Shown: positions 9,110 to 25,156 of the stretch, piece after piece
Numbering within the stretch: position 1 is the stretch's first letter
Layout: the number at the start of each line of letters is the position of its first letter
Assembly (NCBI GenBank): GCA_016933055.1
Contig: JAFGBS010000031.1
Span: 60,001-92,000, forward strand
Length of the DNA: 32,000 bases
Reading direction: 5' to 3'
Source: Promethearchaeota archaeon
GTDB lineage: Archaea > Asgardarchaeota > Lokiarchaeia > Sigyniarchaeales > Promethearchaeaceae
Program-made: the position numbers and the translations under genes
Notes under the pieces: model-generated
The model's database searches: none
The model's input: the letters and a program-made list of their open reading frames with translations, nothing else
Told to the model about the DNA's origin: nothing

Positions 9110-9206
9110 GGGATCATTCTATGTATTTATTTGTGATGATTATTTTTACGATAATGGGATCGACAAGTCGAATTCTAAATTATTTCAATTTGAAAAGGTC
9201 ATAACA

Positions 9207-9212
9207 AGGTGA
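9207..9212 (+). promoter_or_regulatory. Shine-Dalgarno AGGTGA
   Basis: 7 nt upstream of the ATG at 9220, supporting that start. Confidence 0.65.
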
Positions 9213-9219
9213 CAATACT

Positions 9220-10104
9220 ATGCTGATATTAACATATTTCCATCCTGTTTTAGGTCCAGACATTCTTCTCACAGAACCCGAAGATATTCTTGACAACATA
9301 AATCCCAACCATCTGACTGAGATTAAAAATTTGTTAGATACTGCGGATCCAGGATTTTTCACCCATTTTTTCAGTACAGATTTAAGAACGGTGAATATGG
9401 TTTTCTCATTACCCTCACCTTGGGCGCGTGGTGGAGAAGAAATTGCTATGATATCAAAGATCATCCAAGAATCCGATCCCAATTTGGAATTATATGAAAC
9501 TCAATTCATTGAATTTATTACAAAAATCAAATCCGAAATATCGGATGTTTACATGGTATTTTATTTCCGAAAACCTCCTAAAAAAGCCTTACGGGATGAA
9601 ATAAAACAAAAATTAGAACAAATCAGTTACTTCTTTTCAGATTTATACAAGTCCTTAAAATTGATTCCTGTAGATACCTTTGGGGCTCTTATCCCGTTGA
9701 ACACCATTCTTAAAGAACAAACCATTCACATACCATCCAGATTCATTCATGAATTAGGTAAAGATTTAGACGGTACTGAAAAAAATTTTTTTGTAGTAAA
9801 TCAATATCGAGATAAGAAATTCAAGATTGAATTAATTCCGGTCAAATGTCAGAAGATTATAAAAATAAGTTTAATCTTAGGAAACACATTGAACCTCAAA
9901 GTAGTGCAAAAAATAAGCAATATTTTCTCTCAAAATAAACTCATTATAATATACACCTCTGGCATATGTATTCAATCAGGGGGAAATTGCATTTATGAAG
10001 TATATTTAGACGCGGACGCAATTTCGGATGTTGATCAACTGGTCAATCAGTTAAATCGTATTTCTGAAGTAAATAATATCAAAATTCGGAATATTGAGCT
10101 TTAA
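9220..10104 (+). CDS. uDENN/longin-like domain + AbrB-like hairpin + ACT domain fusion protein
   Basis: N-terminus LTYFHPVLGPDILLTEPED resembles the NPRL2/FLCN first strand. FSLPSPWARGGEEIAMI resembles the FLCN/SMCR8 ARG loop. TIHIPSRFIHELG is AbrB-like. Residues ~212-294 have ACT-type beta-alpha-beta-beta-alpha-beta patterning. Confidence 0.65.
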   Translation: MLILTYFHPVLGPDILLTEPEDILDNINPNHLTEIKNLLDTADPGFFTHFFSTDLRTVNMVFSLPSPWARGGEEIAMISKIIQESDPNLELYETQFIEFITKIKSEISDVYMVFYFRKPPKKALRDEIKQKLEQISYFFSDLYKSLKLIPVDTFGALIPLNTILKEQTIHIPSRFIHELGKDLDGTEKNFFVVNQYRDKKFKIELIPVKCQKIIKISLILGNTLNLKVVQKISNIFSQNKLIIIYTSGICIQSGGNCIYEVYLDADAISDVDQLVNQLNRISEVNNIKIRNIEL

Positions 10105-10176: not shown

Positions 10177-10740
10177 TTGGAGGAAGCAACAATTTCTGAA
10201 ACCCAAAATATCTATAAATTTAAAATAACACTGTTTGGAACTTCAAACGTGGGGAAAACTTCTTTGATTTTACGATTTATCAACGATAGTTTTGTTAATG
10301 ATATAAAAAAGACAATAGGCACCAACTTTCTTATAAAGGATCTGCACGTTGATAACAAAAATATAAGATTACTCATCTGGGATATAGGAGGTCAAGCTCA
10401 ATTTTCAAATATGCGTAGTGTTTATTTCAAAGGTAGTAATGCAGCAATTGGTGTTTTTGACATCACCTCAACAGACAGTTTACTTAAAATTCCCAAATGG
10501 GTGATGTCAATTGAAAAATTAGGCTTGAAAATTCCCATGGTGTTGTTGGCAAATAAATATGATCTCGCTCCTGAACAACAAATAGTACAAGAAGAAGATA
10601 TAATAGAGCTTGCAGACCAATTGTCCAGCAAAATGGATAGAAAAATCGATTTTATGTACACGAGTGCCTTAAATGGATTAAATGTGGAAAACGTTTTTTT
10701 TAAAATCGCTCGAATGTGCCTAAGTAATTATTCGAAATAG
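10177..10740 (+). CDS. Rab-like small GTPase (Ras superfamily)
   Basis: G1 GTSNVGKTS, G2 TIGTNF, G3 WDIGGQ, G4 NKYD and G5 TSAL. TTG start. Confidence 0.95.
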   Translation: MEEATISETQNIYKFKITLFGTSNVGKTSLILRFINDSFVNDIKKTIGTNFLIKDLHVDNKNIRLLIWDIGGQAQFSNMRSVYFKGSNAAIGVFDITSTDSLLKIPKWVMSIEKLGLKIPMVLLANKYDLAPEQQIVQEEDIIELADQLSSKMDRKIDFMYTSALNGLNVENVFFKIARMCLSNYSK

Positions 10741-10798: not shown

Positions 10799-11782
10799 AT
10801 GGCATCAGTGTTGTTTATTGAAGAAGATGACATAGGATCTGCATGGGTTTCAGCATTGAAGGCTGTCCTATCCGAAGGGGATGATATTCATACTGAATAT
10901 GATACGGAAACCGATATTGCCGCAAAAGATAGTACCGCTCTGATTTCGGTCAAATATCCTTTTTCTAATCCTATCATCAATAAAAGAAGTAAGGAACATA
11001 AATCTCTCAAGGTAAGGTCGAAAGCAGGAAATTCTTATGAGGTGTTTGGACGGATTGAGGATATTTTCTTAATTGGATCCATTCAATCGAACTATATCGA
11101 GGAAGTACTCGAAGGAATTAACGATAAATTCATAGCGGAGTCAGCGAAAAGCTTTCCATATTCTTATCATGATCGAATTTTTTCCTATACACCTTTTGCT
11201 CTCGAAGATTCCCTTTTAAAGGACTATTCAATAACCTTGAGGAAAAATGAAGATGTAATTCATAATAATAAATTACATTTTCGTAAATCCATTCAACTGA
11301 CCGATGGGAACATGGTTTGGAAATTAAAAAACGGTACCGACTTAATTTTGGATAAAGAAATTGCAGAATACTATGGGATACAAGAATTACCTCTTAGCGT
11401 CTTAAATCTCCCAAAAATTAATCAAATTAACCAAATAATTGAAAAACTGCAAGGGAGTCCCAACACAAGAAGAGCTCAAGCAATTACATGGAGACCATAT
11501 TCTGATATCATTTCAGACGATCCTCCTTGCCTTCAACGTTTGTATTTTCGGATTAAAAATAAAAAACTCATGTTACAAACGACTTGGAGGAGTAGAGATT
11601 TATTTAAGGCATGGGAAGCAAATGTGAATGCGATGATTCGTATTCAAAAGTACGTTGCTGATGAATTACATGATGCCTTAGGTTTGGAAATCGGAGAGTA
11701 TGTTGATTTCAGCAATAGTTTGCATATTTATGGTCGTGATATAAAGGATGTAAAAGAAGTATTAGAGCAAATTGCTGGTTAA
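10799..11782 (+). CDS. thyA: Archaeal-type thymidylate synthase with a large insertion
   Basis: TRRAQAITW, catalytic PPCL, WRSRDLFKAWEANV and SNSLHIY motifs. Confidence 0.85.
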   Translation: MASVLFIEEDDIGSAWVSALKAVLSEGDDIHTEYDTETDIAAKDSTALISVKYPFSNPIINKRSKEHKSLKVRSKAGNSYEVFGRIEDIFLIGSIQSNYIEEVLEGINDKFIAESAKSFPYSYHDRIFSYTPFALEDSLLKDYSITLRKNEDVIHNNKLHFRKSIQLTDGNMVWKLKNGTDLILDKEIAEYYGIQELPLSVLNLPKINQINQIIEKLQGSPNTRRAQAITWRPYSDIISDDPPCLQRLYFRIKNKKLMLQTTWRSRDLFKAWEANVNAMIRIQKYVADELHDALGLEIGEYVDFSNSLHIYGRDIKDVKEVLEQIAG

Positions 11783-18414: not shown

Positions 18415-20670
18415 TTATATTTCAAAAATTTCTTTCAGTAACAGATCATCATTAGCAAATGGGGTGCAATTCCCATCCCATTTTTTAAGAACATTCGTAT
18501 GCCGTTTTTCGAATTCCGTGACAAAAGTTTTCAACTTAGATCGAATTTCTGTTGTTTCGCGATCTGCAAAAATCGCCCCAAATACGTATTCTCCGTATTC
18601 AATTATCACTTTAGTATCTCCGTGATCGATGGTCCGTAGTAGATCTGCACTTTTTGTGGTTTCCTTTATGAACGAGGTTATAGCAGAGAACATTCCTGCA
18701 ACCAGACCGGGGTCTGCAGTAGAACTCTCTTTGAATTTATAGGAAAACACATCCCTTCCATCCTCATACATCGTATACATTGAGTCTAGTTCAGCCCGTT
18801 CGTTCGTAAAGCTGAATTCGGGTTCCCACCATACTAAATTTTTGCGACTTGTCATATATTTCAAGGTTACATACATCCGATCCTTTTCACCTACATCGTC
18901 AGGAAGCAAATCTGTAATTGTTTTTCCGTTTCGACATTCATACATGAGATGTTTTACTTCATCTCGCTCACCTTCTGAAGGACGATAGGTTTTGGGTATC
19001 GAAAGTAAATAATTAGATTGTTGACATTCCTCATACGTCGGTAGATAATTGATTTTTGCAAAGGTAATGTGATCTACAAATTTATCCCGTTTTACGGTTT
19101 TGGTAATAAAATTTTGCTGTACATAATGGAAAGTCAACCCTACAAAAATGAAAGCAAAGAAATAATGTGTATATTGGAATGGAATAGATAGCGCATATAA
19201 AATCATATTTGATTCTAATAAGGATGTTTCTACTAAAGCCGTCCTTGGCATTATCCAAAATCCAAACGCGTCTGTTCTCACTATTTTACTTGTGATCCAA
19301 TACGTGCTGTTGGGATCCCCAAAAAAAGGAAAAATATTGCCCCCTAACATACCTGCAAGAAGTTGGAACACTACTGCTTCCACGACTAAAAATGCCAAAA
19401 TTATTACACTGTTTATTAGTAACTTTTTATTTCGGCTGTAAGAAATCCCCACTATCATTCCAACACCTACAATAACTACCAGAACTCCCAGCGCTTGAAC
19501 TGCAGATAATCCCTCCAGTAATAATACAGTTAGAAATTGTGGTGGAGGACTTGCCTCAAATAAATTGCTAGCAATAATATCTTGAGGAGCTCGAATAGTA
19601 ATCATACCTTGAACAAATGATAAGAAAAATGCGAAAATAAAAATCGCTAATATACTTACTAAACCAAACATTGCTGATTGACCAAAATTTGCAGTATTTG
19701 GTCTTGTTGGCGTCTTTATTTCTTCTTTATGCTTAATCCCATTAATAATTTTGATGAGAATGAGGATTGCAATTGGTTCAAAAATAGCTACCGTTGATAC
19801 AAAGATGAATGCAGCCATGATATAATACGCAAAAAAATACAATACTAATGATAGGGATTGGAATGCCTCGCCTATACTCGCTGATCCTTGAAATGCCTCA
19901 ACAATGAACAGAAGAATACTCAAAATTGAAATGGGGGTTGCAACTGTCATCATGCTTGAATAAGTATCATTTTCTAGCTTTTCCCCAACAAATTTACCCT
20001 GGAATGATGCTTTACTGGCTTTAATTAGCTGAATTGCATACAAAAATGTTGCAATATAAATAAAAAAAATCTCAATGAACCATCCAAGACCACCATCTGC
20101 AGGATCTAATGCAGCAACGCCTGCTATCTTTAGAACTGTGACCAGTAAATATAACGTGATCGGTAAAAGAACTATCAAGGATCGGAATAATCGCATTTCT
20201 TCTCTAAGATTTCCTTTAGTCAAATTTTCAATGATTATCTCCTTAGGGCTTTTGTTATATTCAAAAGTTAACTGAGTTAACTGTATTTTAAATTTAGATT
20301 TATCCTCTTTTTTCAAGCGGAAAAACAGGTAGATTATCGCTATAAATGGTGCAAGCAAAAATATAAACGCTTGATTGATTAAGGGAATTTGGAAAAAATT
20401 GGCAACCACGTTGAATAATCTTGCGAAAAGATAAGCTACTCCTCGAGTAACATCATTCTCAGTGTTTATCACTAAAGTTAGAGGATCTCCAATTTGAAAT
20501 ATAACAGGCATTATAAAATACACTACAAAGAACAATGATATTCCCAATACCAATCGTGTATAAATTTTTTTGAAAATAGGTCGTTTACGAATAAAAAGTA
20601 TGGGTATCCAAATTAATCCAACTGGTAATAAATTGAATACGATTGTTATAAATACTTCTAAGAATGCCAT
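18415..20670 (-). CDS. Polytopic membrane protein with C-terminal longin domain
   Basis: About 12-14 hydrophobic helices over residues 1-520. The C-terminal ~125 aa (MYTMYEDGRDVF...DPGLVAGMFSAITSFIKE...WDGNCTPF) match the Asgard longin pattern. Confidence 0.75.
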   Translation of the reverse strand: MAFLEVFITIVFNLLPVGLIWIPILFIRKRPIFKKIYTRLVLGISLFFVVYFIMPVIFQIGDPLTLVINTENDVTRGVAYLFARLFNVVANFFQIPLINQAFIFLLAPFIAIIYLFFRLKKEDKSKFKIQLTQLTFEYNKSPKEIIIENLTKGNLREEMRLFRSLIVLLPITLYLLVTVLKIAGVAALDPADGGLGWFIEIFFIYIATFLYAIQLIKASKASFQGKFVGEKLENDTYSSMMTVATPISILSILLFIVEAFQGSASIGEAFQSLSLVLYFFAYYIMAAFIFVSTVAIFEPIAILILIKIINGIKHKEEIKTPTRPNTANFGQSAMFGLVSILAIFIFAFFLSFVQGMITIRAPQDIIASNLFEASPPPQFLTVLLLEGLSAVQALGVLVVIVGVGMIVGISYSRNKKLLINSVIILAFLVVEAVVFQLLAGMLGGNIFPFFGDPNSTYWITSKIVRTDAFGFWIMPRTALVETSLLESNMILYALSIPFQYTHYFFAFIFVGLTFHYVQQNFITKTVKRDKFVDHITFAKINYLPTYEECQQSNYLLSIPKTYRPSEGERDEVKHLMYECRNGKTITDLLPDDVGEKDRMYVTLKYMTSRKNLVWWEPEFSFTNERAELDSMYTMYEDGRDVFSYKFKESSTADPGLVAGMFSAITSFIKETTKSADLLRTIDHGDTKVIIEYGEYVFGAIFADRETTEIRSKLKTFVTEFEKRHTNVLKKWDGNCTPFANDDLLLKEIFEI

Positions 20671-24331: not shown

Positions 24332-25039
24332 CTAATCCAATTGTTTCTTAAACAATACTAATCCCATTTTTATAAAAGACTTGCATAGGCTGTAGACTCG
24401 GGTGAGGGGTACGTCAGTTTCATCTGCGATAGTTCCCAAATCTTTCACTCCATCAATTGCTTGGAACACTAATTTGGAATCATTACTGGAAAACAAGTCG
24501 TATATACCTCGTTCATATATCTTCTTAATTCTTTTATAGGGAACTAAACTCGCATCGAACTTGGAAATATTACCTCCGCTAAATTCTTGAGGATTTTCTA
24601 GACTATCTTTATGATGGATTATATTTTCTAAAATTGTTTCAAAATCCTTGAATATCTCGGTTTCTCCATCCCATTTGTTTTCCGTAATGAATGGAAATCG
24701 GCGGATAAACGCGGAACTAATTTTTTTTAACATAGCTTCAACCATAGTCCCTTCGATATCCTTTCCCTTGGATGCTCCTACAAATAACAGATTATGATCA
24801 TTTGGCGGTTTAAAAAACAAGAAACTTACATCTTCCATCTTCATTTCCTTCATATTTCCAAGGGCATCAACATTTTTTGCGAACGAGTTGATAGCTGATA
24901 AAAATCCTGATATCATCGTAATCTGGTCTTCATTTGGACGGCTATTGTCATATAAACATTCATTTCTAGTAAATATGGGAAGCCCGTTTTTTAAAATGAA
25001 CAAATCGTTTAACATCGGAGACACATTAGCTTTAGCCAT
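24332..25039 (-). CDS. Longin domain + C-terminal winged-helix protein
   Basis: Longin pattern LFILKNGLPIF...MISGFLSAINSFA...WDGETEIFKDF. The C-terminal IDGVKDLGTIADETDVPLTRVYSLCKSFIKMGLV is a wHTH. The start is placed at the ATG at 25039 (alternative 25015; track 25108). Confidence 0.75.
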   Translation of the reverse strand: MAKANVSPMLNDLFILKNGLPIFTRNECLYDNSRPNEDQITMISGFLSAINSFAKNVDALGNMKEMKMEDVSFLFFKPPNDHNLLFVGASKGKDIEGTMVEAMLKKISSAFIRRFPFITENKWDGETEIFKDFETILENIIHHKDSLENPQEFSGGNISKFDASLVPYKRIKKIYERGIYDLFSSNDSKLVFQAIDGVKDLGTIADETDVPLTRVYSLCKSFIKMGLVLFKKQLD

Positions 25040-25156
25040 CTCTTGTCGAATAATGAACACCTTAGAATCTAAATAAGTGAGTGTACTATCTTCATAACAC
25101 AGCTTCAAGAAAAAAAAGGTTAAGAAAAAGAAAATTAGAATTTCACAATTTGAGAA

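Follow-up and report, generated by a model that had tools for sequence, protein, structure and literature searches.

The window analysed here is a stretch of 32,000 nucleotides from a Promethearchaeota archaeon (GenBank assembly GCA_016933055.1, contig JAFGBS010000031.1, positions 60,001 to 92,000, forward strand), and the gene in question, P0001, is its open reading frame 9220-10104 on the plus strand, stop codon included, with a translation of 294 residues. The protein is a Lokiarchaeial member of the class of Asgard longins described as NPRL2-like or FLCN/SMCR8-type: its homologues are Asgard proteins, its longin domain is NPRL2/FLCN-like, and it carries both a Gly-Pro pair (the GP motif) and a loop arginine, Arg70. 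An initial annotation of this DNA had proposed Arg70 as the arginine finger of a GTPase-activating protein (GAP) of the FLCN/SMCR8 type. The gene, its domains, the two motifs and the GTPase gene that follows are laid out below, each with the evidence that places it.

9220-10104, plus strand: P0001 gene, a longin domain with an ACT-like tail (open reading frame list, translation, full-length homologues, AlphaFold2 model).
9220-9660, plus strand: longin domain, residues 1-147 (DSSP on AlphaFold2 models, matches to PDB structures).
9253-9258, plus strand: Gly12-Pro13 (GP motif), opening strand β2 (conservation, alignment to NPRL2 G20-P21).
9415-9441, plus strand: β4-β5 hairpin loop S66-P-W-A-R70-G-G-E-E74, with Arg70 as candidate arginine finger (conservation, AlphaFold2 models).
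9673-10101, plus strand: C-terminal module, residues 152-294, of which residues 211-294 are ACT-like (ferredoxin-like; VIA-align, Foldseek, PRK08577).
10177-10740, plus strand: P0002, a Rab-like small GTPase of 187 residues (Pfam Ras, 2e-40).

Arg70 is encoded by the cgt codon at 9427-9429 and preceded by the codons tgg (Trp68) and gcg (Ala69), which bears out the placement in the initial annotation; the two strings quoted there are likewise present in the translation, LTYFHPVLGPDILLTEPED as residues 4-22 and FSLPSPWARGGEEIAMISKII as residues 62-82. Full-length homologues with 30-81% identity are found in Promethearchaeota/Lokiarchaeota (Asgard archaea). Out of 1.84 billion representatives, clustered at 50% identity, a HMMER/phmmer scan returned 238 matches at E ≤ 0.001, and conservation was counted per position in the N-terminal-domain alignment of the matches listed, no two of which share more than 50% identity. 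Here 151 of 152 homologues have Arg70 and 149 of 152 the adjacent Gly71, and the GP motif is retained to a similar degree (Gly12 148/148, Pro13 142/148). Further positions of high conservation are Phe7 (146/147), Asn59 (144/153), Pro20 (136/145), Glu74 (136/152), Ser66 (133/152) and Ala69 (116/152). Matching patterns are seen in the orthologue alignment and in family alignments of 99-108 sequences, and GP and R-G are kept in all four of the proteins formed by P0001 and its three paralogues in the same genome. The initial annotation had named a non-conserved Arg70 as grounds for giving up the finger; with the arginine present in all but one of the homologues counted, these grounds fall away. 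That Arg70 marks a functional site is, in our judgment, very likely.

The longin assignment and the location of the arginine within it come from AlphaFold2 models of the whole protein (predicted local distance difference test score, pLDDT, 93.2; predicted template modelling score, pTM, 0.80) and of residues 1-150 (pLDDT 95.5, pTM 0.90). Residues 1-147 form a longin fold with a five-stranded sheet in the order β-β-α-β-β-β-α-α, in which DSSP assigns strands to residues 2-8, 12-19, 45-52, 55-65 and 73-82 and helices to residues 23-41, 89-106, 110-115 and 122-147. Gly12 and Pro13 open strand β2, and in both models Arg70 lies inside the seven-residue loop 66-72 between strands 4 and 5, a block with pLDDT 96-98. 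This topological position is shared with the published fingers, since SMCR8 Arg147 is located in the βL4-βL5 loop of its longin domain, equivalent to FLCN Arg164 (Tang et al.). FLCN R164 and SMCR8 R147 point at beryllium fluoride (BeF3) in trapped GAP complexes (Su et al.; Jansen et al.), and the papers confirm the numbering and the catalytic role given for the two residues in the initial annotation; NPRL2 Arg78 is the third such finger. According to PMC12290439 (Traffic 2025), the GP motif at the loop and start of β2 is specific to GAP longins and a spatial neighbour of the finger, and FNIP2, NPRL3, adaptins, TRAPP and DENND proteins lack both the motif and the loop arginine. The GP motif of P0001 stands where that text places the motif of GAP longins.

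Comparison of the models with known structures leads to the same group of proteins. When the whole-protein model was compared exhaustively with 48,161 PDB chain representatives in VIA-align, the top match was the folliculin-complex chain 6nzd_H (Z 12.3, 138 aligned residues, root-mean-square deviation, rmsd, 2.8), followed by NPRL2 8fw5_B (Z 11.7, 128 aligned, rmsd 2.6), the Lokiarchaeial longin 8yqg_B (Z 11.6) and yeast Npr2 8adl_S (Z 10.9), with Lst4, AP2 sigma/mu, Sec22, VAMP7 and C9orf72-SMCR8 lower at Z 9.3-9.9. In a second VIA-align search the active FLCN GAP complex chain 8dhb_J came first (Z 13.0, 137 aligned, rmsd 3.0), and NPRL2 scored 11.4-11.8, Lst4 10.9 and AP sigma 10.4-10.6; the longin matches overall span Z 8.4-13.0. 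Chains 8dhb_J and 6nzd_H we take to be FLCN itself from the titles of the PDB entries. With the domain-only model, ten of the 12 top Foldseek matches (E 1.8e-5 to 2.7e-3) are NPRL2/Npr2 or FLCN chains and the remaining two are 8yqg; the best is NPRL2 9o5d_D (E 1.8e-5), identity to NPRL2/Npr2 is 15-20%, and ordinary longins begin at E ~7e-3. In the ESM Atlas, eukaryotic clusters of NPR2 and Folliculin proteins are structural neighbours (TM 0.66-0.75), along with Asgard fusions of longin and Arf and with longin clusters from Promethearchaeota; some of the neighbouring Asgard clusters are themselves partly annotated as NPR2 or Folliculin. The preference of the models for catalytic GAP longins is therefore consistent across methods, but modest.

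In sequence, the closest link is to NPRL2. When a profile of the family was compared with PDB sequences, its first 30-odd positions aligned to NPRL2 residues 9-42, so that F7, H8, P9, L11, G12, P13, P20, E21 and D22 of P0001 correspond to F15, H16, P17, L19, G20, P21, P28, E29 and D30 of NPRL2; the NPRL2 N-terminus quoted in the initial annotation proved accurate (PDB chain 6ces_N, residues 9-42). The offset of this alignment is 8, the structural alignments also start by pairing model residue 1 with NPRL2 residue 9, and residue 70 thereby falls on position 78, that of the NPRL2 finger. Between the motif proline and the arginine there are 56 residues in P0001 (P13-R70) and 56 in human NPRL2 (P21-R78), and within the archaeal family the spacing ranges from 51 to 59. 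The equal spacing is suggestive of a link between R70 and R78 at the level of sequence. Other searches returned little: phmmer with P0001 found nothing relevant among PDB sequences, residues 1-66 alone gave only an irrelevant match, and no Pfam or NCBIfam family matches the longin domain. Taken with the fold and the loop, we consider it likely that R70 occupies the position homologous to the eukaryotic arginine fingers. Of the finger of FLCN/SMCR8 type proposed initially, the longin domain, the near-invariant Arg70, its β4-β5 loop and the FLCN and NPRL2 top structure matches have stood; what has shifted is the type, as sequence and spacing are nearest to NPRL2 R78, a protein to which the initial annotation had turned for the N-terminus only, and as the structure of SMCR8 (7o2w_A, Z 9.5-9.7) matches less well.

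The remainder of the protein points to another fold. Residues 211-294 superpose on the ACT domain of aspartate kinase 3tvi_A with Z 11.5 over 77 aligned residues (rmsd 1.6), and VIA-align also matches them to IlvN, the C-domain of NikR, AF1403 and the Rel ACT domain; Foldseek finds IlvN and NikR as well. The ACT-type matches lie at Z ~10-11.5 and the fold is β-α-β-β-α-β, ferredoxin-like; ribosomal S6 scores similarly, and the ACT likeness of the tail thus holds at the level of the fold only. The NCBIfam model PRK08577 matches residues 167-293 with E 3.7e-7, below its cut-off, and Pfam, its ACT families included, gives no match for residues 150-294 or for stand-alone relatives.

A possible substrate is encoded next door. 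The P0002 gene begins 72 bp downstream of P0001 on the same strand, and its homologues carry the source name 'Rab family GTPase'. P0002 contains the P-loop GTSNVGKT, the switch II motif WDIGGQ with the catalytic Gln73, and NKYD; having retained the switch II glutamine, it is the kind of GTPase that an arginine supplied in trans can complete. Among ten informative loci (L005 and L007 were left out of the gene-order count as their contigs end too soon), a Rab-like GTPase gene directly follows the longin-ACT gene in six: the order longin-ACT, Rab-like GTPase, ThyA-like is found in the window and in L001 (47% identity), L002 (72%), L004 (47%), L009 (46%) and L010 (41%). In L006 (39%) the orthologous GTPase lies 2 kb away, beyond two opposite-strand genes. 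The 80% identical orthologue P0003 (L011:3001-4919) is separated from the ThyA-like gene by a gap of 60 bp from which the Rab-like gene is missing, and the neighbourhood is otherwise kept (GHMP kinase, ThyA-like, proteasome); to judge from the gene order, in L011 the presumed partner GTPase gene has recently been lost or relocated. The association of longin-ACT and Rab-like GTPase genes is frequent, not obligatory.

Links to GTPases extend beyond gene order. In the longin homologues P0044 (323 residues, longin-Arf) and P0070 (1119 residues, longin-Arf-PAS-GAF-histidine kinase) an Arf GTPase is part of the same chain, and in many others the fusion is to PAS-histidine-kinase modules, one of them with 13 PAS repeats; the N-terminal longin with GP and Arg was recognised on Arf or PAS-histidine-kinase proteins in P0044, P0070, P0050, P0060, P0076, P0092, P0116 and P0155. 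Fusions of NPRL2-like longins have been reported before, in general terms, by Liu et al. and by Tran et al. The C9orf72-SMCR8 longin pair is reported to have GAP activity on Rab8a and Rab11a in vitro (Tang et al.). Modelled as a complex, two longin domains with P0002, GTP and Mg reached a score of 0.00, where the mark was 0.32; this speaks neither for nor against binding.

Several observations concern the surroundings of the gene and its relatives. GHMP kinase is encoded upstream of P0001, and downstream come P0002, then a gene resembling that of thymidylate synthase and one for a proteasome beta subunit. In related loci the ThyA-like gene always comes after the GTPase gene or after the longin gene; in the window it spans 10799-11782 (plus strand, 327 residues), and as Pfam Thymidylat_synt covers only the C-terminal 140 residues (E 8.6e-15), the product resembles a divergent ThyA-like enzyme, its N-terminal half being unexplained. 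An open reading frame of 100 residues on the opposite strand (9180-9482, minus) overlaps the longin coding region; homologues were found only for the plus-strand frame, and the opposite-strand frame is probably a by-product of AT-rich sequence. The window holds two further longin/roadblock-like products, a soluble protein of 258 residues (24332-25108, minus) and the C-terminus of a 751-residue membrane protein (18415-18900, minus); on reading, neither shows the GP...ARG signature, and the family profile misses both.

The three paralogues elsewhere in the genome differ in size. The one at C6:268405-269682 (L012:2906-4183) has 425 residues and a long tail without a Pfam match, and those on C11 (L013:2917-3390, minus strand) and C16 (L014:2990-3478) have about 160 residues each; their R-G strings read SSWARGQKE, AYVRGG and EPRGF, and at none of the three loci is a GTPase gene next to the paralogue. 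The Folliculin model of Pfam also gave a weak match on C11 (30036-30263, plus strand; E 0.0084, 17.1 bits, below cut-off) inside an open frame of 497 residues; since the same model gives weak matches in eight of 14 control genomes, this is probably noise.

Taken as a whole, these data are best explained, with somewhat more confidence than doubt, by P0001 being an arginine-finger GAP longin with R70 as the finger. For R70 itself the finger is a plausible role, and the chances that P0001 is a GAP are in our estimate even or a little better. By this reading, P0001 would dimerise through its longin sheet, as other longin/roadblock platforms do, or through its ACT-like tail; the dimer would then bind a small GTPase in its GTP-bound state, at the switch regions, and R70 would enter the nucleotide pocket in trans, where it and the switch II glutamine of the GTPase itself would jointly complete catalysis. 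The first candidate substrate would be the co-directional, Rab-like P0002, a pairing to which we give a little less than an even chance, and Arf-like GTPases would be the alternative. The ACT-like tail could make the activity of P0001 respond to a small molecule. Combined, this would give a self-contained, small-molecule-gated GAP, in which the ACT-like tail dimerises the protein and controls the R70 finger that switches off the adjacent Rab-like GTPase; as a complete scheme we regard this as speculative and, with all its parts, rather unlikely to hold.

A number of observations weigh against P0001 as an arginine-finger GAP. GAP activity is reported for no Asgard longin (PMC12290439), and the catalytic longin of eukaryotes needs a second, different longin as partner, the SMCR8 longin being inactive alone (Tang et al.). 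The structural preference amounts to only ~2-3 Z units above ordinary longins (AP sigma 10.4-10.6, Lst4 10.9), and SMCR8/C9orf72, at Z 9.5-9.7, do not rise above generic longins. In the PDB, NPRL2 is matched by the profile over the GP region only and not significantly (E 0.055-0.12), and no match there is given by a profile of residues 42-100, the region around R70; the Pfam families NPR2 (PF06218) and Folliculin (PF11704) do not match P0001, whether the search is made protein-wise or over the whole genome; among 99-108 family members, Folliculin gives two weak matches (best E 0.15) and NPR2, among the families listed, none. In the profile alignment NPRL2 also has an insertion of one residue, I32; equal spacing thus requires a compensating indel, and the spacing argument is not rigorous. 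The near-invariant Glu74 beside R70 could mean a structural salt bridge. At the level of the locus, neither the closest relative L011 (80% identity) nor the distant L003 and L008 have the GTPase as a neighbour, and since the Rab-like GTPase travels with the conserved ThyA-like gene, the gene order may partly be inherited synteny.

As an alternative to a GAP, the longin could bind small GTPases as an exchange factor, effector or scaffold, with R70 serving in binding or in reading the nucleotide state. Most longin/roadblock platforms are guanine nucleotide exchange factors (GEFs) or scaffolds (TRAPP, Mon1-Ccz1, DENN, Ragulator; Tran et al.), the GEF longins DENND1B, Mon1-Ccz1 and TRAPP also match the P0001 structure at Z 8.4-10, and fusions to PAS-histidine kinases, noted too by Liu et al., suit an interaction or sensor domain equally well. 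Yet the pairing of GP with a loop arginine is, in PMC12290439, reported as specific to GAP longins; an arginine so strictly kept in an exposed-type hairpin loop resembles a finger, and the top structure matches are catalytic subunits, not their partners. We therefore hold a non-GAP platform to be improbable, though it is the alternative to be taken most seriously. A structural or ligand-binding R70 in a metabolite-sensing regulator, held by a salt bridge to Glu74 or forming part of a phosphate or carboxylate site with the ACT-like tail, would account for the co-conservation of Glu74, Ser66 and Asn59 with R70, for the rigid rather than floppy loop suggested by its high pLDDT, for a tail whose fold is typical of small-molecule sensing and for relatives that lack the GTPase neighbour. 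It fits poorly with longins that carry the same motifs without an ACT tail and are fused directly to Arf GTPases, and with a motif pair that is the same as in proven GAP longins, and we consider this role for R70 quite unlikely. Around R70 the sequence is not significantly similar to that of any eukaryotic GAP longin, as would be expected if the likeness of WARG to the ARG motif of FLCN and SMCR8 were a chance tripeptide in an unrelated fold; the longin fold, the FLCN/NPRL2 top structure matches and the invariance of the residue across a large family exclude chance for practical purposes. Our preference thus stays with an arginine-finger GAP.

The core that carries out catalysis in GATOR1, folliculin and C9orf72-SMCR8 would predate eukaryotes if NPRL2/FLCN-like longins of Asgard archaea are arginine-finger GAPs. 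The initial annotation had inferred from P0001 that longin-type GAP chemistry would have arisen before eukaryotes; the idea is already in print and its novelty does not stand. NPRL2-like longins in Asgard archaea were described in Liu et al. 2020, and the GP motif of Asgard longins, along with their arginine finger, read as a possible GAP site, in PMC12290439. What may be particular to the P0001 locus are the recurrence of the Rab-like neighbour and the ACT-like tail, through which a connection with metabolite sensing becomes testable. Asgard GTPase genes seldom adjoin their regulators (Tran et al.), and a small soluble protein with such a neighbour and with mutable signatures (G12-P13, R70) makes the locus a convenient test case. 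Should the gated scheme hold, it would be a prokaryotic two-gene forerunner of GATOR1/folliculin logic, in which a metabolite acts on a longin GAP and the GAP on a small GTPase, and P0001-P0002 would be the first cognate Asgard longin-GTPase pair ready for the bench.

Among prokaryotic systems, MglB, the GAP of the bacterial Ras-like MglA, differs from P0001 in being a roadblock and not a longin protein, and reportedly supplies no arginine finger. It is, as P0001 would be, a prokaryotic roadblock/longin-superfamily dimer regulating a small GTPase (Tran et al.). The Roadblock-Longin protein of PDB entry 8yqg, from Lokiarchaeota, is a solved Lokiarchaeial dimeric longin with Z 11.6-12.1 to the P0001 model, whereas the sequence profile of the P0001 family does not detect it; we found no publication for this entry. 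The Asgard 'NPRL2-like' or 'FLCN/SMCR8-type' longins (Liu et al. 2020/2021; PMC12290439) resemble the P0001 family in their fusions to two-component domains and to Arf/Rag GTPases; in contrast, neither a longin with an ACT-like tail nor the recurrent Rab-like neighbour was found mentioned in the texts read.

NPRL2/Npr2, the catalytic subunit of GATOR1/SEACIT and GAP for RagA/B, shares with P0001 the longin fold, the N-terminal motif FHP-x-LGP...PED and the spacing from proline to arginine, leads the Foldseek matches and reaches Z 11.1-11.8 in VIA-align. P0001 differs from it in having neither a Pfam NPR2 match nor C-terminal domains of the NPRL2 type, their place being taken by the ACT-like tail, and in the GTPase encoded beside it, which is Rab-like and not Rag-like; no NPRL3 or DEPDC5 partner was identified for P0001, and no search for one was made. 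FLCN (yeast Lst7), the GAP for RagC/D together with FNIP, is the best VIA-align match (8dhb_J, Z 13.0; 6nzd_H, Z 12.3-12.4; ~138 aligned, rmsd 2.8-3.0) and has an Arg-Gly in the β4-β5 loop, as does P0001. Unlike P0001, FLCN has large insertions, its longin spanning residues 4-268, and a DENN domain; P0001 lacks this domain and a Pfam Folliculin match. SMCR8, the GAP for Arf1 and, in vitro, Rab8a/Rab11a in complex with C9orf72, agrees with P0001 in the arginine of its βL4-βL5 loop. It differs in the generic level of its structural match, in its need for C9orf72 and in its DENN domain; its reported activity towards Rab proteins is of relevance to the Rab-like GTPase encoded beside P0001.

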